Position numbers and translations under genes: made by a program
Assembly (NCBI GenBank): GCA_021296095.1
Contig: JAGWBB010000005.1
Coordinates: 2,937-66,936, forward strand
Source: Desulfurellaceae bacterium
GTDB lineage: Bacteria; Desulfobacterota; Binatia; Bin18
Direction of reading: 5' to 3'
Length of the DNA: 64,000 nt
The notes under the pieces: generated by a model
The model's database searches: none
What the model was told of the DNA's origin: nothing
The model's input: the letters and a program-made list of their open reading frames with translations, nothing else
In this document: piece by piece, positions 15,485 to 51,719 of the stretch
Numbering within the stretch: position 1 is the stretch's first letter
Layout: each line of letters starts with the position of its first letter

Positions 15485-15520
15485 TCTGTCCTGTTCTGCC
15501 CAAACCGGAGGAGCTGTCCC

Positions 15521-16453: not shown

Positions 16454-16511
16454 CCGCGCCGTGCGGCCCAGCGTCAAGGATTCCGGAAGTCAGGAGGGAA
16501 GGGGAGGGAGT

Positions 16512-17882: not shown

Positions 17883-17883
17883 C

Positions 17884-18672: not shown

Positions 18673-18693
18673 GGTGGGCTCCTGGGGCGAGGC

Positions 18694-19857: not shown

Positions 19858-19889
19858 GTCGCTACCTCGGAGGAGCGGTCGCCCGACCG

Positions 19890-20315: not shown

Positions 20316-20317
20316 GT

Positions 20318-21496
20318 CTACCTCCGTAAGATAGCCAGGCTGCCATCCCCAAAGTCTCCCCAGCCGGTCACCAGACCCAGCTCGGCGTCCTCGACCTGGC
20401 GCTCGCCGGCCTCGCGGCGCAGCTGGCGGGTGGCCTCGGTGATGTGGTTCATGCCCCACACGTGGGCTTCCGAGTGTAGTCCGCCGTGGGTGTTGATGGG
20501 CAGCTCCCCGCCGAGTTCCAGACGGCCGCCCTGGACAAAATCGCCGACCTCGCCACGCTGACAAAAACCCAGGGCTTCGAGCTGGAGCAGGACGACGTAG
20601 GAGAAACAGTCGTAGATTTCGATGAAGTCGATATCCTTGTGCTCAACGCCGGCCATCCGAAAGGCGTTTGGCGCGGCAAAACTCAGGCCGATGGTGAACG
20701 GGTCGGGCCGCGACGGAATATCGTCGGCCGGGTAGGGGTGCCCCTCGGCCACGCCTGCAATATAGACCGGATCGTGCTTGAGATCTCTGGCCCGTTCCGG
20801 CGAGGAGAGGACCACCGCGCACGCTCCGTCGGTTTCCAGGCAGCAGTCGAACAGCCGGAACGGCTTGGCCACCCAGCGGGCGTTCAAATAGTCGTCCATG
20901 CTGAGCGGGCGGCCGCACATATAGGCTTTGTCGTTCAGCTGGGCGTGCTTGCGCGAGGCGAGCGCCACCGAGCCCATGGCCTCGTCCGGCGTGCCGTACA
21001 GCTCTTTGTGACGGGTAGCCAGCCAGGCGTACCACTGGACGGGCACCGAGGCGCCGTAGGGCAGGTAGTATTCGCCGATCGTGGTGGCCATGACCCCCGG
21101 CGCTCCGCTGCCGCTGCCACCATCGGGACGCCCCAGATTGCGGACCCGCATGGCCGAGTAGCCGTTCCAGCCGAGCGGAATCAGGACGTTATTGGCCACC
21201 CCGCAGGCCACGGCCAGGGCCGCGCTCTGTAGAGAGGTGACCGGGCTGGCGCCGCCCATGTGGACGGTGACCGAGTAGCGCAGGTCCTCAATGCCCAGAT
21301 TGGCCGCAAAATGTTCGGCGGTGGACGGCAGGGGAGGCGGGATAATGCCGTCAATATCGTGCGGGCTGAGGCCGGCGTCGCTGATGGCCCGCATTGAGGC
21401 TTCGAGCATGAGCGACAGGTCGGTCCGGCCCGAGCCTCGGGTAAAGTCGGTTTCGCCGACCCCCACAATACAGGCTTGATCTTTCAGTGCGTGCAT
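20318..21496 (-). CDS. thiolase-like lipid-transfer (SCP-x type) protein
   Basis: [22 protein letters not shown]... N-terminus and C-terminal [17 protein letters not shown] typical of non-acetoacetyl SCP-x-type thiolases. Start at 21496 with AAGGAGGAG SD. The pairing with DUF35 is canonical. Confidence 0.85.
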
Positions 21497-21576
21497 AGCT
21501 CCTCCTTCAGCAGGGTTCCCGGGCCGGATGGTACACCGGACGGGGACGGATTGTAAAGCCAAAGCGGCGAACGGTA

Positions 21577-25849: not shown

Positions 25850-26257
25850 TCACGGAACAACCTCACAGCGTATCTGCCGGAAGTGATGGTCCAGCGTCAA
25901 TGCGCGCCGAATACACAACTCTCGCATCACTGCAAAGCTACAGCAGTCGGTGAAGGAGAAGTTTTTGTCCCGATACCGGAAGAAGAGCGTTCGCGCCCGC
26001 TCTCTTCGCGGCTCGTTAATGGACTCAATCCGCAGGCGGGTCGATCCGTTGATTTGCAGCCACCATGCTTCAGCCGCATCAAGTCCGAGGCGAAACCGGA
26101 TGGTGGTCAGCGTCTCGTCAATCACGTAGTCGGTCGTTGTCAGCACGCCTCCCGACAACAGCCATTGGTCCCGCGCTTCCCGGACAGCCGAACCTGCAGT
26201 ATCGCGGCTATCCGCAGCCGCAACCCACGCGGCCGTGTCCACGAACATTTGTCTCAC
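25850..26257 (-). CDS. vapC: PIN-domain toxin VapC
   Basis: 135 aa. PIN acidic residues in context (FVDT, IDETL, FTDC, LDHHF). GTGA overlap with the upstream antitoxin. An alternative ATG start lies at 26248. Confidence 0.85.
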   Translation of the reverse strand: MRQMFVDTAAWVAAADSRDTAGSAVREARDQWLLSGGVLTTTDYVIDETLTTIRFRLGLDAAEAWWLQINGSTRLRIESINEPRRERARTLFFRYRDKNFSFTDCCSFAVMRELCIRRALTLDHHFRQIRCEVVP

Positions 26258-26499
26258 CGGTACAGCACCTCGTCATGCCGGGTAGCGGCGTCTCCCGATT
26301 CAGACGCGCCAACAGCCGGAGCCTGGTACAGCGGGTCCGATTCCAGAGGTGTGCTGTCAAGCGAGGGATTGCCAACCGGTACGATGTCGAAGGCCGGGCG
26401 ACTGCGGTACAACACGGTGAAGCGCTCCCCCTGTCGCACTTTTTTGACAACGTCCTGCAAGCGCCCTCGGAGCTGTTTGGCACTGATCATTTCAGGCAT
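26254..26499 (-). CDS. Phd/YefM-family antitoxin
   Basis: 81 aa. N-terminal ISAKQLRGRLQDVVKKVRQGERFTVLYRSRPAFDIVPV matches the Phd/YefM fold pattern. Translationally coupled to vapC. Confidence 0.8.
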   Translation of the reverse strand: MPEMISAKQLRGRLQDVVKKVRQGERFTVLYRSRPAFDIVPVGNPSLDSTPLESDPLYQAPAVGASESGDAATRHDEVLYR

Positions 26500-26938: not shown

Positions 26939-29900
26939 TCAATTACGTGGCTCTGGCTCCTGCGACGGCTGTGACAAGCCGCGGGCTTTCCACACGTAGT
27001 ACACGACCGGGTAGACGAGCAGGGTGACCAGGCCGGAGGTGACGATGCCGCCGACCAGCGGCGTTGCAATCCGCTTCATGACATCAGCTCCCGCGCCAGC
27101 ACTCCACATGATGGGCAGAAGCCCGATCACATCGGTCGCTATTGTCATCAGAATCGGTCGAACCCGTTTCACCGCTCCGTCCGTGATGGCTTCGACAAGA
27201 GCACTGCGGTCGGTGAGCAAGCCGCGCTTGCGGTAGTCTGTGTAGGAAAGGTCCAGGTACAGCAGCAGTACGATGGCGGTCTCGGCGTGGAGCCCGGCCA
27301 GGGCGATGACGCCAACCCACACGGCGATGCTGAGGTTGTAATCGAGGATGTACAGCAGCCAGATTGCCCCGGTCAGGGCGAACGGCACGCCGAACAGCAC
27401 GAAGAGCGTTTCGGTGGCGGAGTTGGTGTTGAGGTAGATGAGAATGAAGATCAGCAGCAGGGTCAGCGGAATGACATAGCCGAGGCGCTGCTGGGCGCGC
27501 TGCATGTACTCGTACTGTCCGCTCCAGGCCAGAGTGTAGCCGACAGGCAGCGCTATGCGGTCGGCAACGGCGTGCCGGGCGGCCGTGACGTAGCTCCCGA
27601 CATCGGTATTGCGGATGTCGATGTAGACCCAGGCGTTCGGCCTGGCGCCCTCAGTCTTGATACTCGGCGGGCCGACAGTGTAGCGCAGGCTGGCCAGGCG
27701 TCCCAGCGGAATCTGCGGACCGGCCGGGGTCGGAACCAAAACTGAGCGCAGAGCCGGCAGGTCATCCCGCAGCTCTCGGCTGTAGCGCAAATTGACCGGA
27801 TAGCGCTCGAGCCCTTCGACGGTGGTCGTAATATTCATACCGCCGATGGCGGTCTGGATCACCTGCTGCACGTCATCGACCGTCAGACCGTAGCGGGCGA
27901 TGGCCCCGCGGTCGATCTTGAAGTCGAGATAGTTGCCACCCATCACCCGCTCGGCGTACACGCTGCGTGTTCCGGGCAGCTCCCGGATGACGGCCTCAAT
28001 CTCCTGGCCCAGCCGCTCCAGCTCGGCCAGGTCAGGACCGGCGATCTTGATCCCGACCGGCGTCTTGATGCCGGTCGAGAGCATGTCGATTCGGGCCTCA
28101 ATCGGCATTGTCCAGGCGTTCGTCAGCCCGGGGACCTGGATCGCGGCATTCAACTCCTGGGTGAGTTTTTCGGGAGTCATGCCGGCCCGCCACTCGCTCT
28201 GCGGCTTGAGCATGATCGTGGTTTCGATCATCGACAGCGGCGCGGGATCGGTTGCCGAGTCGGCCCGGCCCACCTTGCCGAAGACCTTGTCCACCTCGGG
28301 GAAGGTTTTGATGATGCGGTCGGTCTGCTGCAAGAGTTCGCGGGCCTTGGTGATCGAGATGCTCGGCAGCGTCGTTGGCATGTAGAGCAGGTCGCCTTCC
28401 CACAGCCGGGGCATGAACTCTGAACCAAGTCGGGAGAAGGGCACAAAGCTCACCGCCAAGGCCACAAATGCGACAGCCAGGGCGGAGGACTTGAAACGTA
28501 AGACGAAGCTCAGGACCGGCCGGTATACGTAGATGAGCAAGCGGCTGATCGGGTTTAGGTCCTGAGGCAGAATCCTGCCCCGCACGCAGTAGCCGACCAG
28601 AACAGGAACCAGGGTCACCGACAGCAGGGCCGCAGCCGCCATGGCGTAGGTCTTGGTGAAGGCGAGCGGCTTGAACAGCCGTCCTTCCTGAGCCTCCAGG
28701 GTGAACACGGGCATGAAGGAGACCGTGATCACGAGTAGGGCAAAGAACAGCGAGGGACCGACTTCCTTGGCCGAGGCGGCAATAATCTGCCAGTGAGGGC
28801 GTCGCTCCCGGTCTCGTGCCAAGTGGGCGTGGGCATTCTCGACCATCACGATACCGGCGTCGACCATGGTGCCGATCGCAACGGCGATGCCGCCGAGCGA
28901 CATGATGTTGACGCTGAGCCCCTGGAAGAAGATCGCGATGAAAGCGATCAGGATGCCGACCGGCAGGCTGATGATGGCGACAAGTCCGCTCCGCATGTGG
29001 AACAGAAAGAGCAGGCACACCAGACCGACGATCAGGAACTGCTGGCTGAGGCTGGTCCGCAGGCTGGCGACCGCGCGGTCAATCAGCGCCGTGCGGTCAT
29101 AGGCGACCGCAATCTCAACGCCCTGGGGCAGACCGGCTTTGAGCTGCTCCAGCTTGGCCTTGACGGCGCGGATGACCCGCAGGGTGCTTGCCCCGTAACG
29201 CACGACGATAATGCCGCCCACGGTCTCGCCCTCGCCGTTCCATTCGGCCAGCCCGCGGCGCGTCTCCGGGCCCACACCGACCCGCGCCACATCTTGCAGC
29301 AGGATCGGCGTTCCGCTGCGGTCCACACCCAGGGCGATTTTGCGCAGGTCGTCCTGAGACTCAAGGTAGCCGAGGCCGCGGATCATGAACTCCTTCTCCG
29401 CTACTTCGAGCAAGCGTCCTCCCACGTCGCTGTTGCTGTGTTGCACCGCGGTCCGAATCGTGGAGATGGAGATGTCGTAGGCCCGAAGCCGGTTCGGATC
29501 GACGCTGATCTGGTACTGCCGGACAAATCCTCCGACGCTGGCGACCTCTGAGACGCCCGGGACGCTGGTCAACTCATACTTGAGGAACCAGTCCTGGATC
29601 GAACGCAGCTCGCTCAGGTCGTGACGGTCAGACTTCAAGGCATACATGAAGGCCCAGCCGGCACCCGTGGCGTCGGGACCGAGCCGTGGCGCGACTCCCG
29701 GCGGCAGCTGCCCGGAGACGGAATTCAGGTATTCGAGGACGCGGCTCCTGGCCCAGTACAGGTCGGTCCCGTCCTCAAAGATGATGTAGACAAAGGAAAA
29801 GCCGAAGAACGAATAGCCCCGCACGACTTTGGCGAACGGCGCGGCGAGCATCTGCGTCGTCAGTGGATAGGTGACCTGATCTTCGACAATGCGCGGCGCC

Positions 29901-30067
29901 TGGCCCGGGTACTCGGTGTAGATGATGACCTGGACGTCGGACAGGTCGGGCAGGGCGTCGAGCGGCGTTCGTAACAGCGCAGAGACGCCGGCCGCCGCGA
30001 CAAGCAGACCGAGGAGCACCACCAGGAAGCGGTTGGTGATTGACCAGTCAATGATGCGCCCACACAT
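26939..30067 (-). CDS. cusA: heavy-metal efflux RND pump, CusA/CzcA family
   Basis: 1042 aa, 12-TM RND architecture. N-terminus IIDWSITNRFLVVLLGLL...YTEYPGQAPRIVEDQVTYPLT is typical of HME-RND CusA. Confidence 0.95.
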   Translation of the reverse strand: MCGRIIDWSITNRFLVVLLGLLVAAAGVSALLRTPLDALPDLSDVQVIIYTEYPGQAPRIVEDQVTYPLTTQMLAAPFAKVVRGYSFFGFSFVYIIFEDGTDLYWARSRVLEYLNSVSGQLPPGVAPRLGPDATGAGWAFMYALKSDRHDLSELRSIQDWFLKYELTSVPGVSEVASVGGFVRQYQISVDPNRLRAYDISISTIRTAVQHSNSDVGGRLLEVAEKEFMIRGLGYLESQDDLRKIALGVDRSGTPILLQDVARVGVGPETRRGLAEWNGEGETVGGIIVVRYGASTLRVIRAVKAKLEQLKAGLPQGVEIAVAYDRTALIDRAVASLRTSLSQQFLIVGLVCLLFLFHMRSGLVAIISLPVGILIAFIAIFFQGLSVNIMSLGGIAVAIGTMVDAGIVMVENAHAHLARDRERRPHWQIIAASAKEVGPSLFFALLVITVSFMPVFTLEAQEGRLFKPLAFTKTYAMAAAALLSVTLVPVLVGYCVRGRILPQDLNPISRLLIYVYRPVLSFVLRFKSSALAVAFVALAVSFVPFSRLGSEFMPRLWEGDLLYMPTTLPSISITKARELLQQTDRIIKTFPEVDKVFGKVGRADSATDPAPLSMIETTIMLKPQSEWRAGMTPEKLTQELNAAIQVPGLTNAWTMPIEARIDMLSTGIKTPVGIKIAGPDLAELERLGQEIEAVIRELPGTRSVYAERVMGGNYLDFKIDRGAIARYGLTVDDVQQVIQTAIGGMNITTTVEGLERYPVNLRYSRELRDDLPALRSVLVPTPAGPQIPLGRLASLRYTVGPPSIKTEGARPNAWVYIDIRNTDVGSYVTAARHAVADRIALPVGYTLAWSGQYEYMQRAQQRLGYVIPLTLLLIFILIYLNTNSATETLFVLFGVPFALTGAIWLLYILDYNLSIAVWVGVIALAGLHAETAIVLLLYLDLSYTDYRKRGLLTDRSALVEAITDGAVKRVRPILMTIATDVIGLLPIMWSAGAGADVMKRIATPLVGGIVTSGLVTLLVYPVVYYVWKARGLSQPSQEPEPRN

Positions 30068-30078
30068 CGCCCACCTCC

Positions 30079-31401
30079 TCAGTGATGATGCTGAGTCGGC
30101 GCCGAAGCCGGTGCGGACTGCTCGGGGGCGCCGTCGTTCAGCAGCTGTGAGATAGCGGCCTTAAGATTGCTGTCGGAGTCAATCAGAAACTGTGAGGAGA
30201 CCACGACCGCCTCGCCGGGGGAGAGCCCGGCGGTGACCTCCTGCATGTCACCGCCCGCCATGCCCAGCTTGACCTCACGGGGCTCAAACACGCCGCCACC
30301 CTTGGCGACGATGACGACCGCTCGTTCCCCGCTGTGCAGGACAGACTCGGCCGGCGCTATCACCGCCCGGGCCGACCCGGCCGCCTGGGCGGAGACCGTG
30401 ACGTACATCATCGGCCTCAGGCGGAGGCCCGGGTTGGCAACCTCGACAAAGGCGGTCAGGGTCCGCGTGTGCTGGTTGACGGCCGGACGAAAGAAGAGAA
30501 TCGTGCCGTCCCAGCGCCGCCCCGGAAACGCGTCGACCTCGATCAGCACCCGCTGGCCTTCACGCACATGGCGTACATCGTTTTCGTAGAACTCGGCTTT
30601 GGCCCACAGCGTAGCGTGGTCGGCAATCTTGAGGACGGTCATGCCCGGGCTGAGTTTCATGCCCTCCAGGGAATCGCCCATCTTGTCGACAATAAACCCG
30701 GAAGAGGGTGAGAAGAAGCGGACCGTGCGGGTAACCGCTCTCGAAGCTCCGAGCGTGTCGATCTGCTCCTCGGTGATATCCCAGTAGCGCAGGCGTTCCC
30801 GGGCCGCTTCGAGCAGAGACTCGGCGCGGGCGACGGCCTCAGGGTAGGCCCTGTTTTGCCGCAGCCGCTCGACATAGTCCATGGCCGCCAGGTACTCACG
30901 CTGCGTCGTGAGCAACTGCGGGCTGTAGATCTCGAACAGCAGGTCGCCTTTCTCGACCAGTTCACCGACGTTGTTGACGCGCGCTTTCTCGATCCAGCCC
31001 TCGAATTTCGTGTTGACGGACACGAGCTTTTCTTCGTTGTGGGCCAGGACGCCGACGGTGCGAATCGAGACCGGCAGCGCACCGGTCGTGACCGGTGTCG
31101 TCCGCACCGCAAAGTTCTGCAAGAAGCCCCGGCTGACCCGAACCCCACCATTTTGTGGGGCTTGGTCTTCATAGACCGGAACGAGGTCCATGCCCATGGG
31201 TGACTTGCCCGGTTGGTCGGAGGTGTAGTTCGGGTCCATCGGGGCGCGCCAATACAGAATCTTCCGCTCGCCTGGGGCCGGTGCGGTGTGAGGGGGCGCA
31301 CCCCGCAGCGCGTCAAGCCGCTCCCAGCCGAGCAGGGCCGACGCGCCGACTCCGAGGCCAACACCAACGAGCAGCAATACAAAACCGCTAAGCCTTGTCA
31401 T
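30079..31401 (-). CDS. cusB: efflux RND periplasmic adaptor, CusB family
   Basis: 440 aa. The YWRAPMDPNYTSDQPGKSPMGMDLVPVY motif is typical of CusB-type MFPs. C-terminal HHH. Confidence 0.9.
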   Translation of the reverse strand: MTRLSGFVLLLVGVGLGVGASALLGWERLDALRGAPPHTAPAPGERKILYWRAPMDPNYTSDQPGKSPMGMDLVPVYEDQAPQNGGVRVSRGFLQNFAVRTTPVTTGALPVSIRTVGVLAHNEEKLVSVNTKFEGWIEKARVNNVGELVEKGDLLFEIYSPQLLTTQREYLAAMDYVERLRQNRAYPEAVARAESLLEAARERLRYWDITEEQIDTLGASRAVTRTVRFFSPSSGFIVDKMGDSLEGMKLSPGMTVLKIADHATLWAKAEFYENDVRHVREGQRVLIEVDAFPGRRWDGTILFFRPAVNQHTRTLTAFVEVANPGLRLRPMMYVTVSAQAAGSARAVIAPAESVLHSGERAVVIVAKGGGVFEPREVKLGMAGGDMQEVTAGLSPGEAVVVSSQFLIDSDSNLKAAISQLLNDGAPEQSAPASAPTQHHH

Positions 31402-32702
31402 GGTCTTTCCTCCGGGAAGGCCGACCCGATGGCACGTTCCATCTCGGCCAGGGCCTGCATGTAATCGGTTTCCAGACGCGCCAAGCCGAGCCGAACCTCA
31501 AGCAGGACCTCCTCGCTGTCCAGCAGTTCGAGCACCCCGGTCGTTCCGGTGGCATACGCCTCCTCGGTCGAGCGCAAAGCCTGTTCGGCCTGGGGCAGCA
31601 AGGCTCTCTCAAAGAGGGCGATCTGTTCATCGGTCATGCGCAGCCGGACCCCAACCGAACGGACAGCGGCGTCAACCGTGTTGACCACGTTGTGGTAGAC
31701 GGCCTTTGCCGCCGCAACCCGCTCGCTTGCCTCCTGCACTCCTGCGTCGTACTTCGAGCGGAAGAGGGGAAGGGTGAGGCTGAGGCTCAGGCTGTACACG
31801 TCTTTGCCGTTGCCGGGGGGTCGATTCAGTCCCGCTCTGGGCCGGCTGCGAACGTTTCCCCAACTGGCGCCCAGGGTGAAGTCGGGCCAGTACTGGCGTC
31901 GGGCCAGCTGCACGCCGCTCTGCCTGCTCTCGATCCGCAGCACGGCCTCCCTCACTTCGGGTCTGTTGGCGCGTCCGATTGCAGACAGCCGGTCGCTGTC
32001 GATGTGCACGACTGGCCGGTCAACGGGGCGGCCGGTTGGAATCGAGGTGTGGACCGGTCGGTCGCACAGCGCATTCAGCCCAGCCTCAAGCTCAACTCGT
32101 TGGCGCAGAAGTTCCTGCCGACGGTTCAGAACCTGGGTGATTTCAGCCTGGAGCTTGACGACCGCCTGCTGCAGGCCGACCCCCTGAGCGTAGCGTGCCT
32201 GAGCCAGGGTTTCATAATGGCGCAGGAGCTGCTCTTGTTCGGCAGTGATGCCGAGCGCTTGATCAATATAGCCGAGGTCGTAGTAGGCCAGTTTGATCTG
32301 GCGGACCAACTCGGCCCTGTTTTGCTGGTAGAGCGTATCACGGACGCCGGCCTGCTTGGCAGCAATCTTGCCCCGGTCCGACAGCTTGCCGAACCAGGGG
32401 AACTTCTGGCTTAGCGCGACGACTGTTGTCTGCGGACCGACCCGGGTCTCCGGGGACCGCGCGTGTTGCGTGACCGCCAGGCTCGGATCCGGCAGGGCGG
32501 TGACCTGGGCAACGCGCAACTGGGCGGCCTGAGCGTCCAGCAAGGCTTGGCGGAGCTGCGGATTGCTCTCAAGCGCTTGCTCGACCAGAGCGGCCAGCGT
32601 CGGATCGTTATTGGTCGCATAGGCCGGCGTGTCAGCCCGCGCCAGGCCGAGCGCCGGCAGGAACAGCCACGTGCAAAAGTAGAGCAGCACTCCCTTCTTC
32701 AT
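31398..32702 (-). CDS. cusC: TolC-family outer membrane factor (CusC/CzcC-like)
   Basis: 434 aa with signal peptide and two TolC repeats. 4-nt overlap with the cusB start. Confidence 0.85.
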   Translation of the reverse strand: MKKGVLLYFCTWLFLPALGLARADTPAYATNNDPTLAALVEQALESNPQLRQALLDAQAAQLRVAQVTALPDPSLAVTQHARSPETRVGPQTTVVALSQKFPWFGKLSDRGKIAAKQAGVRDTLYQQNRAELVRQIKLAYYDLGYIDQALGITAEQEQLLRHYETLAQARYAQGVGLQQAVVKLQAEITQVLNRRQELLRQRVELEAGLNALCDRPVHTSIPTGRPVDRPVVHIDSDRLSAIGRANRPEVREAVLRIESRQSGVQLARRQYWPDFTLGASWGNVRSRPRAGLNRPPGNGKDVYSLSLSLTLPLFRSKYDAGVQEASERVAAAKAVYHNVVNTVDAAVRSVGVRLRMTDEQIALFERALLPQAEQALRSTEEAYATGTTGVLELLDSEEVLLEVRLGLARLETDYMQALAEMERAIGSAFPEERP

Positions 32703-35035: not shown

Positions 35036-35536
35036 TCAGTCGTCTTGGTTGTTCCGGCTCAGCAGGGTGGTAATCGCCCACTCATAGCCGTCGGTTAGCG
35101 CCATCCAGGCCGAGGCGAGCAGGTCGCGCGACGTGCGCATGGTGCTCCACCGCTGTTGCCCGTCGCTGAATTTCATGATCGACACCACCTCGGCGGCGGT
35201 GCCCTGTCCACCCCGATGGGTGTACAACTCAACGAGCTGTACACCCTTGATCATCGGAAAATAGTGGAGCAAGACCCGACGCAGCGCCGAGTCCAGGGCC
35301 TGGACGCCGCCCACGCCCTGAGCGGCTTCAATCTTCTCCTGGCCGTTCACCTCGATAACAACCACCGCGTCTATGGCCCGGCGCCCTTCCCATTCCTCGT
35401 CAACCACGCGCCAGCGGACGATTTCAAACGGTGGACGGTAGTGCGGATCCTGCCGCCAGCGGGCCACGTCCTGCGAGGCCTGGGGGGCCGTGGCGGCGTC
35501 AAAAAAGTCTTCAGCTGGTTCTTGTTTTTGTGCCAT
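35036..35536 (-). CDS. stand-alone LeuA/CimA allosteric (LeuA_dimer-like) domain protein
   Basis: 166 aa. GVGGVQALDSALRRVL...VQLVELYTHRGGQGTAAEVVSIMKFSDGQQRWSTMRTSRDLLASAWMALTDGYEWAI resembles the C-terminal regulatory domain of isopropylmalate/citramalate synthases. No catalytic TIM barrel. Confidence 0.65.
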   Translation of the reverse strand: MAQKQEPAEDFFDAATAPQASQDVARWRQDPHYRPPFEIVRWRVVDEEWEGRRAIDAVVVIEVNGQEKIEAAQGVGGVQALDSALRRVLLHYFPMIKGVQLVELYTHRGGQGTAAEVVSIMKFSDGQQRWSTMRTSRDLLASAWMALTDGYEWAITTLLSRNNQDD

Positions 35537-35586
35537 GCAGACTTTCTGTATGTTTGTGGTAGGAGATACTTACCATACAAGGAGTG

Positions 35587-35826
35587 TTAGACCTCGCCCA
35601 GGGTGTCCCAGTGAATTTCCCAGAATTGGGGCAGGGGCGGGGAAAATTCGAAGTGCCCGCCAAAGCACGCAAAGCTGGGTTGGTGGGATAAGCGCTCGCG
35701 CAGCAGGTGGAGATAGTCCTCGAGCTCCTGCTCGGTCGGGTCCCCTGCTGCGTTGCTGACGGGGGGGGACCCGATATCCATGCGCCTGCGCTGGCCACAC
35801 TTTTGACAACTGATATCCACGTGCAT
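35587..35826 (-). CDS. hypothetical 79-aa protein
   Basis: ORF with a CxxC near the N-terminus (SCQKCG), 50 nt upstream of the LeuA_dimer-like gene on the same strand. No family recognised. Confidence 0.45.
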   Translation of the reverse strand: MHVDISCQKCGQRRRMDIGSPPVSNAAGDPTEQELEDYLHLLRERLSHQPSFACFGGHFEFSPPLPQFWEIHWDTLGEV

Positions 35827-35901
35827 AGGCTCCCCTGGATTTGCTGGCCTGAACCAGATACATAGTACTGCCTACATGACTCCAAAGGAGGCTGCAAGCG
35901 C

Positions 35902-36255
35902 ATGCCGTTGGTCACATTTGTGAAGCAAGAGCTGAGTATCGAGGTGCCCGAAGGGGCGAACCTGCGGGACGTCGCGCTGGAGAACAAGATTGACCTGTAC
36001 GCGTTCCCGGATAGCCTGCTCAACTGCCGCGGGCGCGGCCTGTGCGGCACCTGCCGGGTACAGGTCGACGACCATCGGGCTCTGTCCGAACGCACCATAA
36101 CGGATGAAAAAAAGAACGGCTGGGAGGGGAAAACCTATCGCCTGGCCTGCCAGTCGCAAGTGCTCGACGATGTGTCGGTTGTCACCAGTCCGCGTCGCAT
36201 TCGGGGCTGGATGGACCATTCGACCTACGCCACAATGAAGAAACAAGGCGCCTGA
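35902..36255 (+). CDS. 2Fe-2S ferredoxin
   Basis: 117 aa. Cluster motif CRGRGLCGTCRV ... LAC (Cx5Cx2C...C, as in NqrF-type 2Fe-2S domains). Confidence 0.8.
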   Translation: MPLVTFVKQELSIEVPEGANLRDVALENKIDLYAFPDSLLNCRGRGLCGTCRVQVDDHRALSERTITDEKKNGWEGKTYRLACQSQVLDDVSVVTSPRRIRGWMDHSTYATMKKQGA

Positions 36256-43002: not shown

Positions 43003-44379
43003 ATGGCGCGCATCCGCAACGCTGACCGTCGTCAACACCGGGCTGTGGCCGGGCCCGAGCGCGCCGTGCTGGTCGGTGTTGAAGCGGGGACGAGCGCGCC
43101 CGGCGGCACCCTTCGACTCGACGAGTCCTTGGACGAACTGACCCGGTTGAGTCATACGGCCGGCCTGGAGGTGGCCGGTCAGGTGCGCCAGGTGCTGCGC
43201 AACGGTGTGCAGCCGGCCTCGTATATCGGCAGCGGCAAGCTGGCCGAGGTCCAGCAGCTGAGCGTCGCCACGAACGCCACTGTCGTCATTTTTGACGACG
43301 ACCTGTCCCCGGCCCAGCAGCGTAATCTCGAAAAAATCTTGCGTCTCAAGGTTGTGGACCGCAGCCAGCTGATTCTGGATATCTTTGCCCAGCGCGCCCA
43401 GAGCCAGGCCGGGAAGTTGCAGGTCGAACTCGCCCAGCTCGAGTATCTGCGCCCACGCCTCACCCGCCAGTGGACGCACCTCTCGCGACTCGGTGGCGGG
43501 CTGGGCAGCCGGGGGCCGGGAGAAGCCCAACTCGAGGTTGACCGGCGGCGGATTCGAGAGCGCATTGCCACCCTGCGCCGGCGTCTGCGGGAGGTCGAGC
43601 GGACGCGCGGTCTCCACCGTCACGAGCGTGCCCGTGTGCCCTTTCCGTGTCTCGCCCTCGTCGGCTATACCAACGCCGGAAAATCGACCCTGATGAACGC
43701 CCTGACCCGGGCGCAGGTATTGGTCGAAGACAAACTCTTCGCCACCCTGGACCCGACCAGTCGCCGCCTCGACCTGCCCGGCGGGCAGACCGTGCTGGTG
43801 ACGGATACGGTTGGCTTTATCAACAAGCTGCCCCACCAGCTCATTGACGCGTTCACGGCCACCCTCGAAGAAGTGCGGACGGCCGACCTCCTGTTGCACG
43901 TGATTGACGCCAGCCACCCGCGCTGCCTGGAGCAAAAGACGGTCGCCGAGCGGGTGCTGGAAGAGATCGGGGTGGCCCACATCCCGACCTTGACCGTCTG
44001 GAATAAGCTGGACCGGCTGCCGGCCGAGCCCCCCGAAGACGTGGTGTGGCCCGGGTTTGGAGCGACTCAGGCGCCGACGGCCAGTGGCGTCGGAGGCGAG
44101 ACCTGCTTTGGCATCTCGGCCCTGAGGGGAGCCGGTACTGCGGCGCTGCTCGGGGCTATCGCGCGCCGTCTGGAACGGAAGCGGCGCGTGCTGCGGCTGG
44201 AGCTGCCCCTGGACGCTGGACAGCTCCTGGATTTTCTGCACACAAATGGCACGGTGGTGGAACAAACGTATACGAACACGAGCGTCCGGCTGACCGTCCG
44301 GGTGTCGGCCAAGGTGGCCGGACAGCTCCGCAAGAGGCTGGCCGCAACCGGGCTGGCCGGACAGAAGCTGAACGCGTGA
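43003..44379 (+). CDS. hflX: GTPase HflX
   Basis: 458 aa. HflX N-domain ([20 protein letters not shown]) and G-domain ([21 protein letters not shown]). Confidence 0.9.
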
Positions 44380-44969
44380 ATACAAGCTCGTCCTTCTCCA
44401 TAGAGCTGCGCCACCCTCGGGTCTTGCCCAATCTGATCACCGCCCTGCGTGTCCTGGCCATTCCCGTGCTGCTGTTTTTGCTGATCCGCGAGCGCTACGC
44501 GGCCGCGCTGAGCACCTTTGTCTTTGCCGGCCTGACCGACTGGCTGGACGGACAAGTCGCGCGCTATGTGGGTAGTGACGCTGAAGAATTCGGCAAGCGC
44601 TTTGACGCCCTGGCCGATAAAGCCCTGGCCGGCAGCAGCCTGGTCATGCTCACGCTGGTCGGCGGCGTACCGATGTGGCTGACCTGTCTGGTGGTGGGCC
44701 GGGATGTGGCCCTGGTCGGCGGCTTTGGCCTCATCTTTCTGTGGACGGGCCGAACGATTCGCACCAAGCCGAGCCGGGTTGGCAAGTGGGGGACGTTTTT
44801 CGTGCTGGTGACGGTCAGCATGGCGCTGGTTGAACTGTTGTCGCCGCACTGGCTGCCTGGCCTGCTGGTCTGGACGGTCTGGGGGCTGGCCGGAGGGGCG
44901 ACTGTTGTCTCGGGCGTGCAGTACGGCTGGCGGACTGTCGCCTGGCTGTGGGGCCGGGAGGAGGACTGA
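44376..44969 (+). CDS. pgsA: CDP-alcohol phosphatidyltransferase (PgsA-like)
   Basis: GTG at 44376 overlaps the hflX stop (GTGA). Motif DWLDGQVAR...[10 protein letters not shown] equals D(x)2DG(x)2AR...G(x)3D(x)3D. Multiple TM helices. Confidence 0.8.
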
Positions 44970-45096: not shown

Positions 45097-45861
45097 GTGA
45101 TTCGGGTGTTTCCGTGTGTTGAGAATACCAAACTCATGGAACTCTTCCGCAAGGGGGTAGAGGGCCAGTGGTCGGCGTCGGTGATCGACTGGGACCAGCC
45201 GCTGGGCCTCGACAAGGCTGAGCAGCGCGCTTTCGCCCACGTGTTGACCCCCGTCTACCTGGGCGAGCAGACGGCGATGGTCGGAGCGAGTTCGGTCATC
45301 CCGCAATTCTTCGCCACCCATCAAACCGAGGCTCAGCTCTATCTTTCGACTTTTCTGCTTGACGAAGCGCGCCACTTCGAGACGATCACCCGTTTTTACA
45401 ACAAGATGGGCCTCCGTCCGCTGGAGGTTCGCGATCTGAAAGTCATGTTTCGCTATCAGGCCCGGCTGTTTCAGTCGCGTGACAAGGTTGAGTGGCTGTG
45501 GGGCATTTTATTGAGCGATATCCTGGCCCGTCATTTTTACAGCATTCTGGTCAAAGCCCATCCGACCTCCTTGTTCGCCGAGTTTGCCAGGCGCATTATC
45601 ATTGACGAAGCCCGCCACCTGGCCTTTGCCGAGCTGTACCTGGGCGAGGAACTCAAGCGCAAACCCGAGCTCAAGTCCGACTTTCTCAAGATGCGGGATG
45701 AGCTGATTGGACTGATGCGGGCCATCCACGCCGGCTTGAAAGACGAGGCCGACTTTATCGGCCTTGACGAAAAGCTGCTCTTTGACGCGGTGGTCTATGA
45801 TGTGGAGAAGAAGGTCCGGCGCATGCAGCTCCACGAGCCGCCGCAGGACGAGCCGGCGTGA
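45097..45861 (+). CDS. ferritin-like di-iron carboxylate protein (AurF/desaturase-like oxygenase fold)
   Basis: 254 aa. Two DEARH motifs (FLLDEARHFE and IIIDEARHLA), each preceded by a Glu-containing helix, the E...DExRH x2 di-iron signature. GTG start after GGGGGAG. Confidence 0.7.
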   Translation: MIRVFPCVENTKLMELFRKGVEGQWSASVIDWDQPLGLDKAEQRAFAHVLTPVYLGEQTAMVGASSVIPQFFATHQTEAQLYLSTFLLDEARHFETITRFYNKMGLRPLEVRDLKVMFRYQARLFQSRDKVEWLWGILLSDILARHFYSILVKAHPTSLFAEFARRIIIDEARHLAFAELYLGEELKRKPELKSDFLKMRDELIGLMRAIHAGLKDEADFIGLDEKLLFDAVVYDVEKKVRRMQLHEPPQDEPA

Positions 45862-47150
45862 AAGCACGCCCCGCCCGCGCTCAGCCCGGCCTGCGCTGGC
45901 CACGGGCCAATCGCCCCCCCACCATTCAGTACCGACAAGACCAGTTGCGAGCCCTGGCCCACTGGGAGGCCGACCACCACCATGTGCTGAGCTGGCCGGT
46001 CCCGGAGGCTGTACTGGGCCGTTTTCAGGAGTGTCTGAGCGGCCATATGGTGCTGCCCGTCGGAGTGGTCGGTCCGCTAGCCGTAAACCTGGGCGACTAC
46101 AGGCTGGATGAGACGGGTTGCGTTCGGGAGTCGGGACGAACGGGTGAAGACGTGTTTGTTCCCCTGGCCCATACCGAGGGCGGCCTGTCCGCCTCGGTCC
46201 AGCGCGGCGTGCGCGCCGCAGGGCTGGCCGGCGGCATCCGCACCCATGTGTTGGCTGATCGCATGACCCGAGACTCGTGTTTTGTCTTTGGCTCGACCCG
46301 GGAGGCGCTGCGCCTGGCCGACTGGCTGGCCGGCCGGCAAACGGAGATGGCCGACTGGCTGCGGCAGGCTCGGCACGCCCCGCCCGCCGCCGCCCTTCCG
46401 CCTGTCAGCTCGCACGCCGTCCTGCGCGGGCTGGAGACGCATGTGGTCGGGCCCATGTGTCACGTGCTGTATCGGTTTACAACCGGTGACGCCTGCGGCC
46501 CGAACATGATGACGCGCAACGCCTACGCCCTGAATCAGGGCTTTATCCGCGAGCGTTTTGCGCGCCAGACCGGTCTCGAACCGCTGCACGTCTTTGTCGA
46601 AACGAATATGGGTGGCGATAAGAAGCCCAGCCACGCCTTTTTCCAGTTCCCCGGCCACGGCAAGCTGGTCATGGCCGAGGCCACGCTGCCCGAGGCTGTG
46701 TTGCGGCGGGTCTTGCGCGTGCGGGCCGACGACGTGCTGGCCCTGGAACACGCCGGGCTGCACGGCTCGCACGCCAGCGGCATGCAGTCCTTCGCCTTCA
46801 CGCCGGCCTCGGCCGTGGCGGCCGTCTTTGCCGCCACCGGCCAGGATTTGGGTATGGTTGGCACGAGCAGCATGGCCCACGATTCGGTCTCCCGGACCGA
46901 AGACGGCATCCACATCACGATCCGTCTGTCCGGCCTGGAAGTCGGGACGGTTGGAGGCGGAACGAGTCTGCCCCACGCCCAGGCGTATCTCCGTCTGATG
47001 GACTGCTTGGGACCGGGCAAAGTCTACCGTTTTGCCCAGCTCATTGCCGCTACTGCCCTGTGCCTGGAGATTTCAGCCACCGCCAGCATGGCCTCGGCCG
47101 GCAGTCAGAACTTTGTGCAGGCCCATTCTGAGCGGGGTGGCGAAAGATGA
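45858..47150 (+). CDS. divergent HMG-CoA reductase-fold oxidoreductase
   Basis: 430 aa. HMGR catalytic-domain motifs PVGVVGPL, PLAHTEGGLSASVQRG (cf. TEGCLVAS), GDACGPNMM (cf. DAMGxNM), GGDKKPS (cf. DKKPAA), GTVGGGT, and a C-terminal His (QAHSE). GTGA overlap with the di-iron gene. Confidence 0.75.
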   Translation: MKARPARAQPGLRWPRANRPPTIQYRQDQLRALAHWEADHHHVLSWPVPEAVLGRFQECLSGHMVLPVGVVGPLAVNLGDYRLDETGCVRESGRTGEDVFVPLAHTEGGLSASVQRGVRAAGLAGGIRTHVLADRMTRDSCFVFGSTREALRLADWLAGRQTEMADWLRQARHAPPAAALPPVSSHAVLRGLETHVVGPMCHVLYRFTTGDACGPNMMTRNAYALNQGFIRERFARQTGLEPLHVFVETNMGGDKKPSHAFFQFPGHGKLVMAEATLPEAVLRRVLRVRADDVLALEHAGLHGSHASGMQSFAFTPASAVAAVFAATGQDLGMVGTSSMAHDSVSRTEDGIHITIRLSGLEVGTVGGGTSLPHAQAYLRLMDCLGPGKVYRFAQLIAATALCLEISATASMASAGSQNFVQAHSERGGER

Positions 47151-47201: not shown

Positions 47202-48107
47202 ATGGCAGCCATCCGGCTCATTGTTAATCCCAGCTCCGGCCGGGGGCGGGGGAGGGCGGTGGCGAAGCAGGCCGCCCAGCTGCTGGCCGGCCATGGAGTA
47301 ACCCACGAGGTCTGCTACAGCGTCTCGCCCCACGAGCCTACCCGACTGGCCCGCCAGGCGCTCGTCGACGGGGCGGCTGCGGTGGTCGGTATCGGCGGCG
47401 ACGGGTTGGTGAGTCAGGTCGCCGCCGAGTTGGTCGGAACCCGGACGCCGCTGGGCATCATTCCGGCCGGCCGGGGCAACGATTTTGCGCGGGGCTTAGG
47501 CATCCCGCTCGATATCCCGACCGCCTGCGCCACGCTCGCCGCCGGCCGGCAGCGGCGGATCGATGTCGGCCAAGCCAACGGACGCTACTTTTTCTCAATG
47601 GCGGTCATGGGCCTTGCCGCCGAGATCAATCGCCGGGCCAACGCCCTGACCCGTCTGCGGACGAATGGGGTGTATACGCTGCTCACGCTTGCCACGGTTT
47701 TCCGCTCTCAGCCCCAATTCTTCAGCCTGGAGTACGAAGGCGGTCGTCGCCGCTGCTACAGCTGGCTGATCGCGGTCGGCAATACCTGGAGCAGTGGCCG
47801 GGGGATGGCTCTGGTGCCGGCCGCCCGGCCGGACGACGGCCAGCTGGACGCGTGTGTGGTGAACGGCGTGGGCAGGCTTGAGCTGCTGTCCGTGTTCCCC
47901 CGCGTATTCAAGGGCCGGCACGTCTACCACACCGGGGTGGAGACGTTGTGTGGCCGCGCCATGACGATTCATGCCGATCAGCCCGGCGATATCTACGCCG
48001 ACGGGGAACGGATCGGCCCCCTGCCGGCCAGACTGGAGACGATTCCGCAGGCGCTGAGTGTCTTCGTGCCAGCCGCGCCTCAGCGCGGGCAGGGGGAAGG
48101 CTGCTAG
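47202..48107 (+). CDS. diacylglycerol-kinase-family lipid kinase (YegS/LCB5-like)
   Basis: 301 aa. RLIVNPSSGRGRG N-terminus and GGDGLVSQV catalytic motif. Confidence 0.85.
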   Translation: MAAIRLIVNPSSGRGRGRAVAKQAAQLLAGHGVTHEVCYSVSPHEPTRLARQALVDGAAAVVGIGGDGLVSQVAAELVGTRTPLGIIPAGRGNDFARGLGIPLDIPTACATLAAGRQRRIDVGQANGRYFFSMAVMGLAAEINRRANALTRLRTNGVYTLLTLATVFRSQPQFFSLEYEGGRRRCYSWLIAVGNTWSSGRGMALVPAARPDDGQLDACVVNGVGRLELLSVFPRVFKGRHVYHTGVETLCGRAMTIHADQPGDIYADGERIGPLPARLETIPQALSVFVPAAPQRGQGEGC

Positions 48108-50398: not shown

Positions 50399-51719
50399 AT
50401 GGCCATCGACGTGTGTATGCCCCGTCTCAGTGATACCATGGAGGAGGGCCGGATTCTCAAGTGGCTCAAGCAGCCTGGGGACCGGATTGAGATCGGCGAC
50501 ATCATCGCCGAGGTCGAAACCGACAAGGCCGATATGGAGATGGAAGCCCTCGACGAGGGCGTCCTGATCGAGATTCTCGTTCCCGAGGGCGGGATGGTCC
50601 CGGTCGGTGGGGTAATGGCCCGCCTCGGTGCTGCCGACGAAATCGTCGCCGCCGACAGCGCCGCACCGGAACCGCCCGCAGAAAACGGGATCGCCGAAAC
50701 GCCGTCCCCGGAACCGCGCGCCCGCCCGCCCCCCCAAGGTCCGTGAGCTGCGGGAGATCCGTGCCCAGCGTGAACCGACACCGGCCGAAGAGACCGGACG
50801 GCTGCTCGCCTCGCCGGTGGTCAGACGCATGGCCCAGGAACTGAGTCTCGATCTCAGTCAGGTGCCGGGCAGCGGCCCGGGCGGCCGGATTGTCAAGCGC
50901 GATCTCGAAGCCTATACCGCAGCCCAGGCTCCGCTTGATGCCACAGCCAAGTCCCGAACAGAACTCCAAGCCGAGTCCCAAGCAGAACCCCAAATTGAGC
51001 CCCAGGCTGCGGCGCGGGCTTCTGCCGGCCCGGCAACGGCCACCAGAGAGCCATTTTCACGTATGCGGGCGACCATCGCCAAGCGTATGTCGGAGAGCAT
51101 GCGCGAAGCGCCCCATTTTTACCTCACGGCCGAGATCAATATGTCCGAGGCGGTCCGGTTACGCACCGCGCTCAAGGCCAGCAACCGGGTGACCGAGGAT
51201 GTGACCTACACCCATCTGCTGATGAAGGCGGTTGCCGTCGCCCTGGCTCGCCATCCGCGTCTCAACGCCAGTTTTGGCGGCGATGCCCGCGAGTATCAGG
51301 AGCACATCAATATCGGTCTGGCCGTCTCGCTCGACGACGGTTTGATCGTGCCGGTCTTGCACGACTGCGACAGCCTGTCGCTGCTCGAGATTGCGGCCCA
51401 GGCCACGGCGCTGGTCGAGCGCGCCCGCAGCGGCAAGCCCCGAGCCGAGGATTTGAGCGGCGGGACGTTTACGATTTCCAACCTCGGCATGCTGCCGATT
51501 GAACATTTTACGGCCATCATCAACCAGCCCCAGGCGGCCATCCTGGCCGTTGGGGCGATTAAGGAGCGGCCGGTGGTGCGGGACGGTCAGGTCACGATTG
51601 CGTCGATCATGATGGTGACCCTGTCGTGCGACCACCGCATCCTTGACGGCATGACTGGCGGACAGTTTTTGCAAGAGCTGAAGAGCCTGCTGGAAAATCC
51701 GGTGGGCCTGATGGTGTAG
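50399..51719 (+). pseudogene. dihydrolipoamide acyltransferase (2-oxo acid dehydrogenase E2) split by a +1 frameshift
   Basis: Lipoyl domain ([13 protein letters not shown]) in the 50399-50746 frame. Peripheral-subunit-binding domain (ASPVVRRMAQELSLDLSQVPGSGPGGRIVKRD) and catalytic domain (DHRILDG) in the 50628-51719 frame. The frames meet at a C7 run (50729-50735). Confidence 0.8.

Follow-up and report, generated by a model that had tools for sequence, protein, structure and literature searches.

The enzyme HMG-CoA reductase (HMGR) is among the most studied, and its fold is taken to indicate the mevalonate pathway; degradative HMGRs excepted, we know of no member of the fold with another physiological reaction. 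Here we describe an HMGR-like protein of 430 residues (ORF430), encoded together with a ferritin-like protein of 254 residues (ORF254), that resembles several described systems without matching any of them. Similar to the class I HMGRs (EC 1.1.1.34; human, and Methanothermococcus thermolithotrophicus, PDB ID 6HR7), ORF430 has the fold, the full Pfam domain, the catalytic residues, the DKK cis-loop and the DAxGxNM and GTVGGGT nucleotide motifs; however, it belongs to a separate clade with fixed substitutions, has a ferritin-like partner, and is adjoined by no mevalonate gene, either in the window (the whole 64 kb stretch of DNA analysed) or among the annotated neighbours elsewhere. The best profile and structural match of ORF254 is the R2-like ligand-binding oxidase (R2lox; Geobacillus kaustophilus, PDB ID 4HR0; M. 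tuberculosis Rv0233, PDB ID 3EE4), with which it shares a ferritin-like helical bundle and a six-residue carboxylate/His metal site, although at ~17% identity it is ~60 residues shorter, scores far under the NCBIfam cut-offs, has the cross-link Tyr replaced by Trp or Phe, and apparently uses Asp141 rather than Glu as its helix-3 ligand. Crystals of R2lox contain a long-chain fatty acid bound at the metal site, and R2lox and aldehyde-deformylating oxygenase (ADO) are both lipid-binding. In the cyanobacterial system of acyl-ACP reductase (AAR) and ADO, as in the pair proposed here, an NAD(P)H thioester reductase stands beside a di-iron enzyme of ferritin fold that acts on the lipid product, but the reductase of our pair has the HMGR fold and is unrelated to AAR, the similarity to ADO extends over half of the protein, and the pair is accompanied by a lipid kinase and an acyltransferase that would be superfluous for an alkane pathway. 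Finally, the fatty acyl-CoA reductases (Marinobacter FAR with WS/DGAT, and the myxobacterial ElbD reductase-acyltransferase) carry out the four-electron conversion of a thioester to an alcohol entering lipids that we propose for ORF430, and acyltransferase neighbours are common to these wax-ester/ether-lipid systems and to our loci, yet the Marinobacter FAR and ElbD reductases are Rossmann-fold SDR-type proteins. To our knowledge, neither a ferritin-like oxidase nor a DAGK-family kinase partners any wax-ester or ether-lipid fatty acyl-CoA reductase. A literature search returned no match for such a pairing, and in the full-text literature we found no paper describing an HMGR-like and ferritin-like/R2lox pair.

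Both ORFs were found on the + strand at the positions given by the first-pass annotation of this DNA (Table 1), and the GTGA overlap that it had described was likewise seen, with the TGA stop codon of ORF254 (45859-45861) overlapping the GTG start codon of ORF430 (45858-45860). This 4-nt overlap is retained in 40 of 48 Binatia-type loci. ORF254 itself begins with GTG at 45097, and GGGGGAGAT lies just before it. Further upstream, the GTG start of a PgsA-like gene overlaps the hflX stop; this gene is 5' of the pair in one Binatia sub-group only, and whether it belongs with the pair is uncertain.

Table 1. Features of the ORF254/ORF430 locus, with positions in the window.
Feature	Position	Strand	Basis
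PgsA-like CDP-alcohol phosphatidyltransferase	44376..44969	+	PF01066 96 bits; pgsA TIGR00560 76 bits, below cut-off 109
ORF254, predicted ferritin-fold di-metal carboxylate protein, R2lox/ADO-like	45097..45861	+	ORF call, fold match, profile match
GTGA stop/start overlap of ORF254 with ORF430 (translational coupling)	45858..45861	+	
ORF430, divergent class-I-fold HMG-CoA-reductase-like protein, predicted NAD(P)H-dependent thioester reductase	45858..47150	+	Pfam, residue mapping, tree, model
DAGK/YegS-family lipid kinase	47202..48107	+	51 nt past ORF430; DAGK_cat and YegS_C; TIGR00147 150 bits, above cut-off 118.65

Homologues of the two ORFs lie side by side in 133 of 138 testable loci (48/48 testable Binatia-type loci, 26/31 other genome loci and 59/59 testable metagenome loci), which is far beyond chance. 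In the other direction, five loci have the ferritin-like gene without an HMGR-like gene within 10 kb, which counts against a module. The pair occurs in at least four phyla, its hosts being Binatia (the source of the window), Sulfobacillus and other Bacillota, Chloroflexota and Actinomycetota, and depending on the lineage it is co-directional with the 4-nt overlap, convergent, or in reversed order. One actinobacterial lineage even has a very divergent ferritin-like protein as partner (hhalign E 2e-5) and still retains the adjacency. The first-pass annotation had named absence of the pairing from related genomes as grounds for abandoning it; instead, we observe a neighbourhood that is both conserved across phyla and rearranged into several gene orders. 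A plasmid collection was uninformative: besides two ordinary HMGRs it contained only a ferritin-like gene of 27% identity, located in a Streptomyces aryl-acid/NRPS-type cluster.

ORF430 matches the Pfam HMG-CoA_red profile (PF00368) with 263 bits over positions 2-365 of 368, and its model (pLDDT 87.5) superimposes on the class I HMGRs 6HR7 and 1DQ8 with TM scores of 0.74-0.84 (Foldseek). All of the HMGR landmarks that had been claimed for it are present (HTEGG, TGDACGPNMM, GGDKKPS, GTVGGGT and the C-terminal His, H423), but the catalytic Asp had been misplaced in GDACGPNMM; that Asp is part of the nucleotide-binding motif, and the catalytic one is D330 in ATGQDLG. The catalytic residues E107, K255, D330 and H423, equivalent to human E559, K691, D767 and H866, are conserved in the HMGR-like family sequences examined with the exception of a degenerate outlier (P0271). 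A loss of H866, suggested by the alignment of the canonical GHL with GSxNF, was considered and rejected, as numbering anchored on D690 places H866 at the second His (KSH), which is the conserved H423. Also retained in the family are R590, D690 and K692 (human numbering), which contact the polar HMG moiety in human HMGR. The family nevertheless stands apart from canonical HMGRs: it scores 336-522 bits vs ≤190 for all other HMGRs, forms its own clade with 96% neighbour-joining bootstrap, and has a median identity of 31% to canonical enzymes vs 37% among these. ORF430 itself reaches 182.1 bits with TIGR00533, below the equivalog cut-off of 441.8. The clustering with bona fide HMGRs that the first-pass annotation had listed among its refuting conditions is not seen. 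Clade members carry the automated label 'HMG-CoA reductase (NADPH)'. At the human N755 position, Ser is found in 18 of 19 family sequences, and in further lineages as well, vs Asn in 27/27 canonical ones. Other changes fixed in the family are T557H, R702H, A769G, E773T, Q814A, R871G, H752T and L853A (human numbering), and the family-specific residues of ORF430 are H105, H267, T315, S318, G332, T336, A374 and A407. The smaller pocket residues (H752T, N755S and L853A) together with the new histidines (T557H and R702H) would be consistent with a substrate acyl group different from HMG.

The two DEARH motifs reported for ORF254 are indeed there, at residues 89-93 and 170-174 (nt 45361-45375 and 45604-45618), and do not vary across 54 homologues; in the 54-sequence alignment the predicted metal ligands E57, E90, H93, D141, E171 and H174 are invariant, with the helix-3 ligand Asp141 assigned by alignment only. 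The AF2 model (pLDDT 90.7) gives TM scores of 0.73-0.79 to R2lox and target-normalised scores of 0.72-0.75 to ADO (Foldseek), and the family profile searched against the PDB finds R2lox with an E-value of 1e-8 over the full length and ADO with 6e-7, confined to the C-terminal half (positions 135-247). The Pfam AurF profile (PF11583) scores 28.8 bits on ORF254, just short of its cut-off of 29.6, and in precomputed data it is above threshold in many homologues; the family profile picked up no AurF or CmlI chain in the PDB at E up to 1. The earlier proposal of a ferritin-like di-iron oxygenase is upheld as far as the match to di-metal families goes, with the correction that R2lox and ADO are nearer than AurF or the soluble desaturases. 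Judged by profile and model, ORF254 is a predicted ferritin-fold di-metal protein with R2lox and ADO as nearest relatives. It is no ordinary R2lox, since NF006200 gives 35.9 bits, below the cut-off of 194, and Tyr162 of R2lox, which forms the Tyr-Val ether cross-link, aligns with Trp135 of ORF254, a position that is Trp or Phe family-wide. A tyrosyl-radical (R2-type) role was rejected, as four residues past H93 there is Leu or Ile and not Tyr.

The first-pass annotation suggested a two-enzyme module acting on some acyl-thioester other than HMG-CoA. Our data support such a module but not its limit to two genes, as the kinase gene that begins just outside the coordinates it considered (Table 1) recurs with the pair in three arrangements (45 of 49 Binatia-type loci, 31 of 80 metagenome loci). 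This recurrence suggests that the module is larger than two genes, with the kinase as its probable third member; it must be weighed against the finding that none of the 31 Bacillota and 'Actinomycetes' genome loci has the kinase, which counts against a lipid module. A PlsC-type acyltransferase adjoins the kinase in 12 loci (two arrangements), a membrane FA_desaturase is near the pair in 24, one group of loci has a FAAL-like AMP ligase together with a B12 radical-SAM enzyme, an MbcS-like acyl-CoA synthetase is immediately 5' in 13 Sulfobacillus-type loci, a 4HBT thioesterase is 3' of the reductase in three, and patatin, WS/DGAT and an LpxL-like acyltransferase are each neighbours in a single locus. 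The sister HMGR-like clade adjoins a PlsC/DAGAT acyltransferase, a patatin and an MMPL transporter. From this lipid context we infer that the 'other' acyl-thioester is probably a lipid.

A diverged HMGR relative beside a di-metal partner and usually a lipid kinase, with no mevalonate gene in the window or among the annotated neighbours, gives the impression of a lipid pathway's core that has not been described so far. We lean, at somewhat better than even confidence, towards a conserved and uncharacterised lipid module in which an oxidised fatty acyl thioester is reduced to an alcohol or diol and then phosphorylated. ORF430 would be a neofunctionalised paralogue of class-I-fold HMGR that uses NAD(P)H to reduce a CoA thioester, by way of an aldehyde that stays bound, to the primary alcohol. 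ORF254 would be an O2-activating di-metal enzyme that oxidises this acyl chain close to the carboxyl group, alpha- or beta-hydroxylation being the simplest case, and together the two would make a fatty alcohol or long-chain diol from an activated fatty acid. The DAGK-family kinase may then phosphorylate this alcohol, and in some lineages the PlsC-type acyltransferase may acylate the phosphorylated product. The folds, the retained catalytic residues, the separate clade and the conserved yet rearranged neighbourhood are established by the comparisons above, but substrate class, reaction direction, regiochemistry of the oxidation, a physical complex and enzyme activity are all inferred, there being no biochemistry for either family.

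A more specific version, in which the module makes membrane lipids that have a long-chain diol in place of glycerol as their backbone, is possible but at present unlikely. Long-chain 1,2-diol lipids are chemically known from Thermomicrobium (Chloroflexota) and from Thermus/Meiothermus, and we know of no genes assigned to their biosynthesis. Here the di-metal enzyme would introduce a hydroxyl group at C2 (or C3) of a fatty acid or acyl-CoA, and reduction of the hydroxyacyl-CoA by the HMGR-like enzyme would yield a 1,2- (or 1,3-) diol. The kinase would phosphorylate the primary hydroxyl of this diol and the PlsC-type acyltransferase esterify the secondary one to give a phosphatidic acid analogue, and a CDP-alcohol transferase, for example the PgsA-like neighbour, could add the head group.

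The substrate might instead be a small polar or branched short-chain acyl-CoA, HMG-like or derived from leucine/isovalerate, such as a branched C5-C6 acyl-CoA that is hydroxylated and reduced to a diol. With D690, K692 and R590 retained, the pocket suits a small polar substrate no less well than a long acyl chain, and in 13 Sulfobacillus-type loci the acyl-CoA synthetase immediately 5' of the pair resembles the short-chain enzymes MbcS and acetate-CoA ligase, which counts against a long-chain lipid. The lipid reading also sits poorly with the branched-chain amino-acid genes near the pair in one hot-spring locus, and a short-chain substrate would suit the flanks of locus L083 (acyl-CoA dehydrogenase, CoA transferase and class IV aminotransferase) and the arginase-family neighbours in L079 and L089. 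We consider it quite unlikely all the same, since the oxidase has proteins with long aliphatic ligands as its nearest relatives, the kinase is of the DAG/sphingosine/ceramide kinase family, and the PlsC, FA_desaturase, FAAL-like ligase, patatin and WS/DGAT neighbours indicate lipids.

Still more doubtful is a hydrocarbon module of the cyanobacterial AAR/ADO kind, in which the reductase would stop at or leak the aldehyde and the ADO-like partner would deformylate it to a one-carbon-shorter product and formate. Besides the profile and structural matches to ADO given above, some ORF254 homologues bear the NCBI name 'long-chain fatty aldehyde decarbonylase' and a distant one has a weak match to PF11266 (ADO), a thioester reductase beside a ferritin-like oxidase follows AAR/ADO logic, the tight coupling of the genes suggests a complex, and N755S could conceivably alter the second hydride transfer. 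However, the Pfam scan gave no PF11266 match on ORF254 itself, R2lox is the better and full-length match, the recurrent lipid kinase and acyltransferase suit an alcohol product and not an alkane, and all four residues for the full four-electron reduction are retained.

We see little chance that ORF430 is a genuine HMGR supplying mevalonate for isoprenoids, with ORF254 accessory or unrelated, although it has the full fold, the catalytic tetrad and the HMG-contacting residues, and its gene is located among housekeeping genes. Against this stand the score far under the equivalog cut-off, the family-wide replacement of the otherwise invariant N755, the separate clade, and conserved partners that are lipid enzymes. 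Bacterial mevalonate genes are usually clustered. The absence of mevalonate and isoprenoid genes noted for the 64 kb held true for about 56 ORFs in our Pfam scan, with no HMG-CoA synthase (HMGS) or GHMP kinase beside the gene, and mevalonate genes were likewise absent from the annotated neighbours of the pair at other loci, eight of which have IspH of the MEP pathway adjoining the module. A cluster at 17.9-21.6 kb with thiolase, DUF35-like, acyl-CoA dehydrogenase and enoyl-CoA hydratase genes was considered as a hidden HMG-CoA synthase complex and rejected, as it has no HMGS domain. In favour of a genuine HMGR, Binatota produce carotenoids and hence require IPP (PMC8262859). The Binatota genome paper and its supplements make no mention of mevalonate, MEP or HMGR, and the supplement of a 2026 review does not list Binatota or Sulfobacillus genera. 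That the pair is not part of the mevalonate pathway is the best explanation of these observations, which cover the window and annotated neighbours and not whole genomes.

The clade is sizeable and phylogenetically coherent, combining altered active-site residues with a conserved, predicted O2-activating partner and lipid-gene surroundings, and its hosts range from Binatia, abundant in soil, to Chloroflexota, Actinomycetota and acidophilic Bacillota. Were it neofunctionalised as we propose, genome-based calls of a mevalonate pathway would be wrong in these phyla, a new way of making fatty alcohols, diols or hydrocarbons would be open to study and biotechnology, and a relative of R2lox, whose physiological role has been open since 2009, would gain a testable metabolic context. 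It may also point to genes for unusual bacterial membrane lipids used as environmental biomarkers. Cultured hosts are available, for example Sulfobacillus harzensis DSM 109850 (locus L071).

That the adjacency is mere inherited synteny can hardly be maintained: a long block of unrelated housekeeping genes is likewise syntenic within Binatia, but the adjacency outlasts changes of orientation, order and surroundings in at least four phyla, and the divergent actinobacterial partner is adjacent nonetheless. Since the Binatia block includes the housekeeping genes for RNase HII, PDH E2/E3 and LipB/LipA, some neighbours of the pair may be passengers. A link to lipoate metabolism, suggested by LipB/LipA and E2/E3 3' of the pair in Binatia and by LplA, GcvH-like and Hdr-like genes near the Sulfobacillus pair, does not recur elsewhere and was set aside as coincidental synteny.

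Our comparisons of sequence, predicted structure and gene order suggest that ORF254, the gene for a ferritin-fold di-metal protein, and ORF430, the gene for an HMGR-like reductase, form a lipid module and do not serve mevalonate synthesis, a reading that we moderately favour in the absence of any biochemistry for either family. It rests on two intact folds, a remodelled reductase clade, oxidase relatives that bind lipids, an adjacency that withstands rearrangement, and the recurrence of lipid genes nearby. In this scheme a thioester would be formed from a fatty acid by activation, the di-metal enzyme would oxidise the acyl chain near its carboxyl end, the HMGR-like enzyme would carry out a four-electron reduction to the primary alcohol, a DAGK-family kinase would phosphorylate that alcohol, with acylation by an acyltransferase to follow in some lineages. 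That this product is a long-chain diol serving as a glycerol-free lipid backbone is conceivable but doubtful, with no direct evidence for a diol; the idea comes from a gene set that matches the need (hydroxylase, hydroxyacyl-CoA reductase, kinase, acyltransferase and CDP-alcohol transferase). The folds are known, and the module is undescribed and widely distributed: a full-text literature search found no description of the pairing, and public names are 'hydroxymethylglutaryl-CoA reductase (NADPH)' for the reductase and 'ferritin-like domain-containing protein', 'hypothetical protein' or 'long-chain fatty aldehyde decarbonylase' for the oxidase.

ORF430 covers nearly the entire Pfam HMG-CoA_red profile (263 bits), and its AlphaFold model (pLDDT 87.5) fits archaeal and human class I HMGR structures with TM 0.74-0.84. 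However, although its fold and catalytic residues qualify it, it fails three tests of a mevalonate-forming HMGR, namely the curated threshold (182 vs 441.8 bits for the NCBI equivalog), N755 and phylogenetic placement, and we therefore call it HMGR-like, not HMGR. When 1.84 billion representative proteins were searched, the family of ORF430 scored 336-522 bits and all other HMGRs at most 190; a neighbour-joining tree that included 27 canonical sequences placed the family in a clade of its own (96% bootstrap), and a small sister group resembling the library protein P0244 branched between it and the canonical HMGRs. Median identity is 54% inside the family, 37% among canonical HMGRs and 31% between the two. 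The first-pass annotation had seen a strongly diverged HMGR-fold enzyme, which the full Pfam domain, sub-threshold score and separate clade bear out; clustering with bona fide HMGRs was not observed. All the motifs it named are present in the two ORFs and the overlapping stop and start codons were confirmed, but it misplaced the catalytic Asp in GDACGPNMM, this residue being D330 in ATGQDLG by human HMGR numbering. We anchored that numbering on the DKK cis-loop (D690, K691, K692) and cross-checked it at N755, D767, L853 and the S872 position. Compared column by column, the family differs at canonically conserved positions by T557H, R702H, N755S, A769G, E773T, Q814A and R871G, and further by H752T and L853A, three of its substitutions being to a smaller residue; E559, R590, D690, K691, K692, D767 and H866 (the invariant catalytic H423 of ORF430) are kept. 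The same signature is found in Binatia reductases and in sequences labelled by their source as Bacillota, Chloroflexota and Gaiellaceae. With E559, K691, D767, H866 and others retained and the signature positions changed, we predict from the alignment alone that thioester-reduction chemistry is probably kept and that the acyl-group pocket is altered, the catalytic and pocket roles being those of the matching residues in human HMGR. P0271, a degenerate 378-aa protein of the representative library that falls inside the clade, has T752 and S755, carries Q-H-G in place of the D690-K691-K692 loop, and may be a pseudo-enzyme. Conservation of D690, K692 and R590 would also suit a short, polar or branched acyl-CoA as substrate, as would the short-chain-type synthetase (MbcS/acetate-CoA-ligase-like) directly upstream in 13 Sulfobacillus-type loci; we consider such a substrate unlikely.

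The ferritin-like di-iron assignment previously given to ORF254 stood as regards a di-metal site and matches to R2lox (R2-like ligand-binding oxidase) and ADO (aldehyde-deformylating oxygenase), but the AurF gathering threshold was narrowly missed (28.8 vs 29.6 bits). R2lox models scored weakly and below threshold, and the ADO match was only partial. Structural neighbours of the ORF254 model (pLDDT 90.7) were, in order, R2lox (TM 0.73-0.79), Chlamydia-type R2 proteins and ADO, and a 54-member family profile matched R2lox (E 1e-8, positions 10-205) and, in its C-terminal half, ADO (E 6e-7), with no match to an AurF/CmlI chain. E57, E90, H93, D141, E171 and H174 are invariant in the family and are predicted to make a complete two-metal site, while the R2lox cross-link Tyr is not conserved and the radical-site Tyr is absent. 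From this combination we infer, as far as sequence can tell, a new branch of di-metal carboxylate proteins; among characterised proteins R2lox and ADO stand nearest to it, and each of these two binds long aliphatic ligands at its metal site. The ADO similarity would fit a hydrocarbon-forming pair like ADO and cyanobacterial acyl-ACP reductase, but a kinase and an acyltransferase do not, and we regard that reading as quite unlikely.

Returning to the lipid module, 45 of 49 Binatia-type loci have the DAGK/YegS kinase gene after the pair, and in the metagenome set this gene takes three arrangements: directly downstream as in the window, divergently upstream, or divergently upstream but separated from the pair by a membrane FA_desaturase-family gene. 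A PlsC-type acyltransferase stands beside the kinase in 12 loci and two arrangements. In one group the same divergent operon also includes a B12-binding radical-SAM enzyme and a FAAL-like AMP ligase. In three actinobacterial-type loci the gene after the reductase encodes a 4HBT hotdog thioesterase, and a patatin, a WS/DGAT, an LpxL-like acyltransferase and a FabH-like enzyme each neighbour the pair in single loci. The reductase sister clade that keeps N755 and has no ferritin partner is flanked by PlsC/DAGAT acyltransferase, patatin and MMPL transporter genes. No mevalonate-pathway enzyme was found among annotated neighbours of the pair, and Pfam scans of the ~56 ORFs of the whole window detected no HMG-CoA synthase, GHMP kinase, prenyltransferase or MEP gene, upholding the reported absence of mevalonate and isoprenoid genes across 64 kb. 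Eight loci have IspH as the gene that diverges from the ferritin-like gene; since IspH catalyses the final step of the MEP pathway, the other route to IPP, at least part of that route is present in those organisms. That ORF430 is a genuine HMGR cannot be excluded without whole-genome mevalonate/MEP data, but is very unlikely given N755S throughout the family, a clade separate from the canonical enzymes, the gene context and the adjacent IspH. Two other neighbourhoods were observed: lipoate and Hdr-like genes adjoin the pair in six Sulfobacillus-type loci, a signature of the sulfur-oxidising sHdr/LbpA system, and a distant ferritin-like homologue (27% identity) lies in what is probably an aryl-acid natural-product cluster on a Streptomyces plasmid.

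The source organism of the window belongs to Candidatus Binatia (Binatota), and the closest genome loci are L001 and L002 (93% protein identity). Searching with the ferritin-like protein gave 80 genome loci and searching with a Chloroflexota-type homologue gave 80 metagenome loci, to which exact-protein look-ups added a few; MAG-contig taxonomy was kept as labelled by the source (some labels, 'Enterobacteriaceae' and 'Klebsiella', are clearly wrong). Counting testable loci only, an HMGR-like gene with Ser at 755 lay within 3 kb of the ferritin-like gene in 48/48 Binatia-type genomes, 26/31 other genomes and 59/59 metagenome contigs, and the pairing was also recovered when the search started from the HMGR-like protein; conservation in related genomes is thus observed, and the pairing is real. 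Ferritin-like genes without an HMGR-like neighbour in the region examined were those of Sulfoacidibacillus-like genomes and two Bacillota MAG loci (L072, L075). The 4-nt overlap is kept in 40 of the 48 Binatia loci, at protein identities down to ~64%; Sulfobacillus and related Bacillota have a convergent pair with 0-20 nt between the stop codons, and in several hot-spring lineages the HMGR-like gene comes first. The reductase of an actinobacterial-type lineage has as its upstream partner a ferritin-like protein that is very divergent (hhalign E 2e-5); a relative of this lineage has an ABM-type monooxygenase after the reductase instead. At the actinobacterial-type locus L094 a small ABM-family monooxygenase occupies the expected partner position and may have replaced the oxygenase without being homologous to it. 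Adjacency survives rearrangement in at least four phyla, and these changes of gene order make pure synteny without a functional link barely credible.

Coordinates of the gene pair, its neighbours and other features
Record	Position	Strand	Feature	Remark
Window	45097-45861	+	ORF254	GTG start, with GGGGGAGAT before it; TGA stop
Window	45858-47150	+	ORF430	GTG start shared with TGA of ORF254 in GTGA
Window	47202-48107		DAGK/YegS-family lipid kinase	51 nt downstream of pair
Window	44376-44379		Second GTGA overlap	hflX stop / GTG start of PgsA-like CDP-alcohol phosphatidyltransferase
Window	50399-51719		Split PDH-type E2 gene	Lipoyl domain 50399-50746; E3-binding and catalytic 50628-51719; different frames
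Window	17884-21562	-	Enoyl-CoA hydratase, acyl-CoA dehydrogenase, DUF35/ChsH2-type OB-fold protein, SCP-x-type thiolase
Window	25850-26499	-	PIN-domain protein and small upstream ORF	25850-26257 and 26254-26499; stop of small ORF overlaps PIN-gene start
Window	26939-32702	-	Three-gene RND efflux system	AcrB-family pump, HMBD (heavy-metal-binding) membrane-fusion protein, outer-membrane factor
Window	35036-36255		166-aa LeuA-domain ORF, then 2Fe-2S ferredoxin	Ferredoxin ORF 35902-36255
L094	9185-9959		4HBT thioesterase
L092	10264-10743		4HBT thioesterase
L079	about 12290-12510		4HBT thioesterase
L057 (Sulfobacillus MAG)	13631-18622		Lipoate-protein ligase, GcvH-like, HdrC/HdrB-like (4Fe-4S and CCG domains)	Adjoin pair
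L175 (Streptomyces sp. NBC_00536 plasmid NZ_CP107820.1)	51852-52979		Distant ferritin-like homologue	Cluster: three adenylating enzymes, two carrier proteins, PaaI thioesterase, acyl-CoA dehydrogenase, DAHP synthase, anthranilate synthase

Elsewhere in the window, the PgsA-like protein falls under the pgsA equivalog cut-off (76 vs 109 bits). The thiolase-containing cluster probably serves beta-oxidation or the degradation of side chains; its thiolase-DUF35 pair is similar to the archaeal thiolase/HMGS scaffold, but HMG-CoA synthase is absent from the window. The PIN-domain gene and its small partner look like a VapBC-type toxin-antitoxin, and the RND system is probably a Cus/Czc-type metal exporter. 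The LeuA dimerisation domain stands without a catalytic HMGL-like domain, and could be either a remnant or a free-standing regulatory domain. The E2 gene is intact as a single gene in L001 and in a further locus, L085, and relative to L001 its Pro/Ala-rich linker carries indels of +6, -3 and -2 nt. The split reflects a genuine frameshift or else faulty assembly of a GC-rich, low-complexity stretch.
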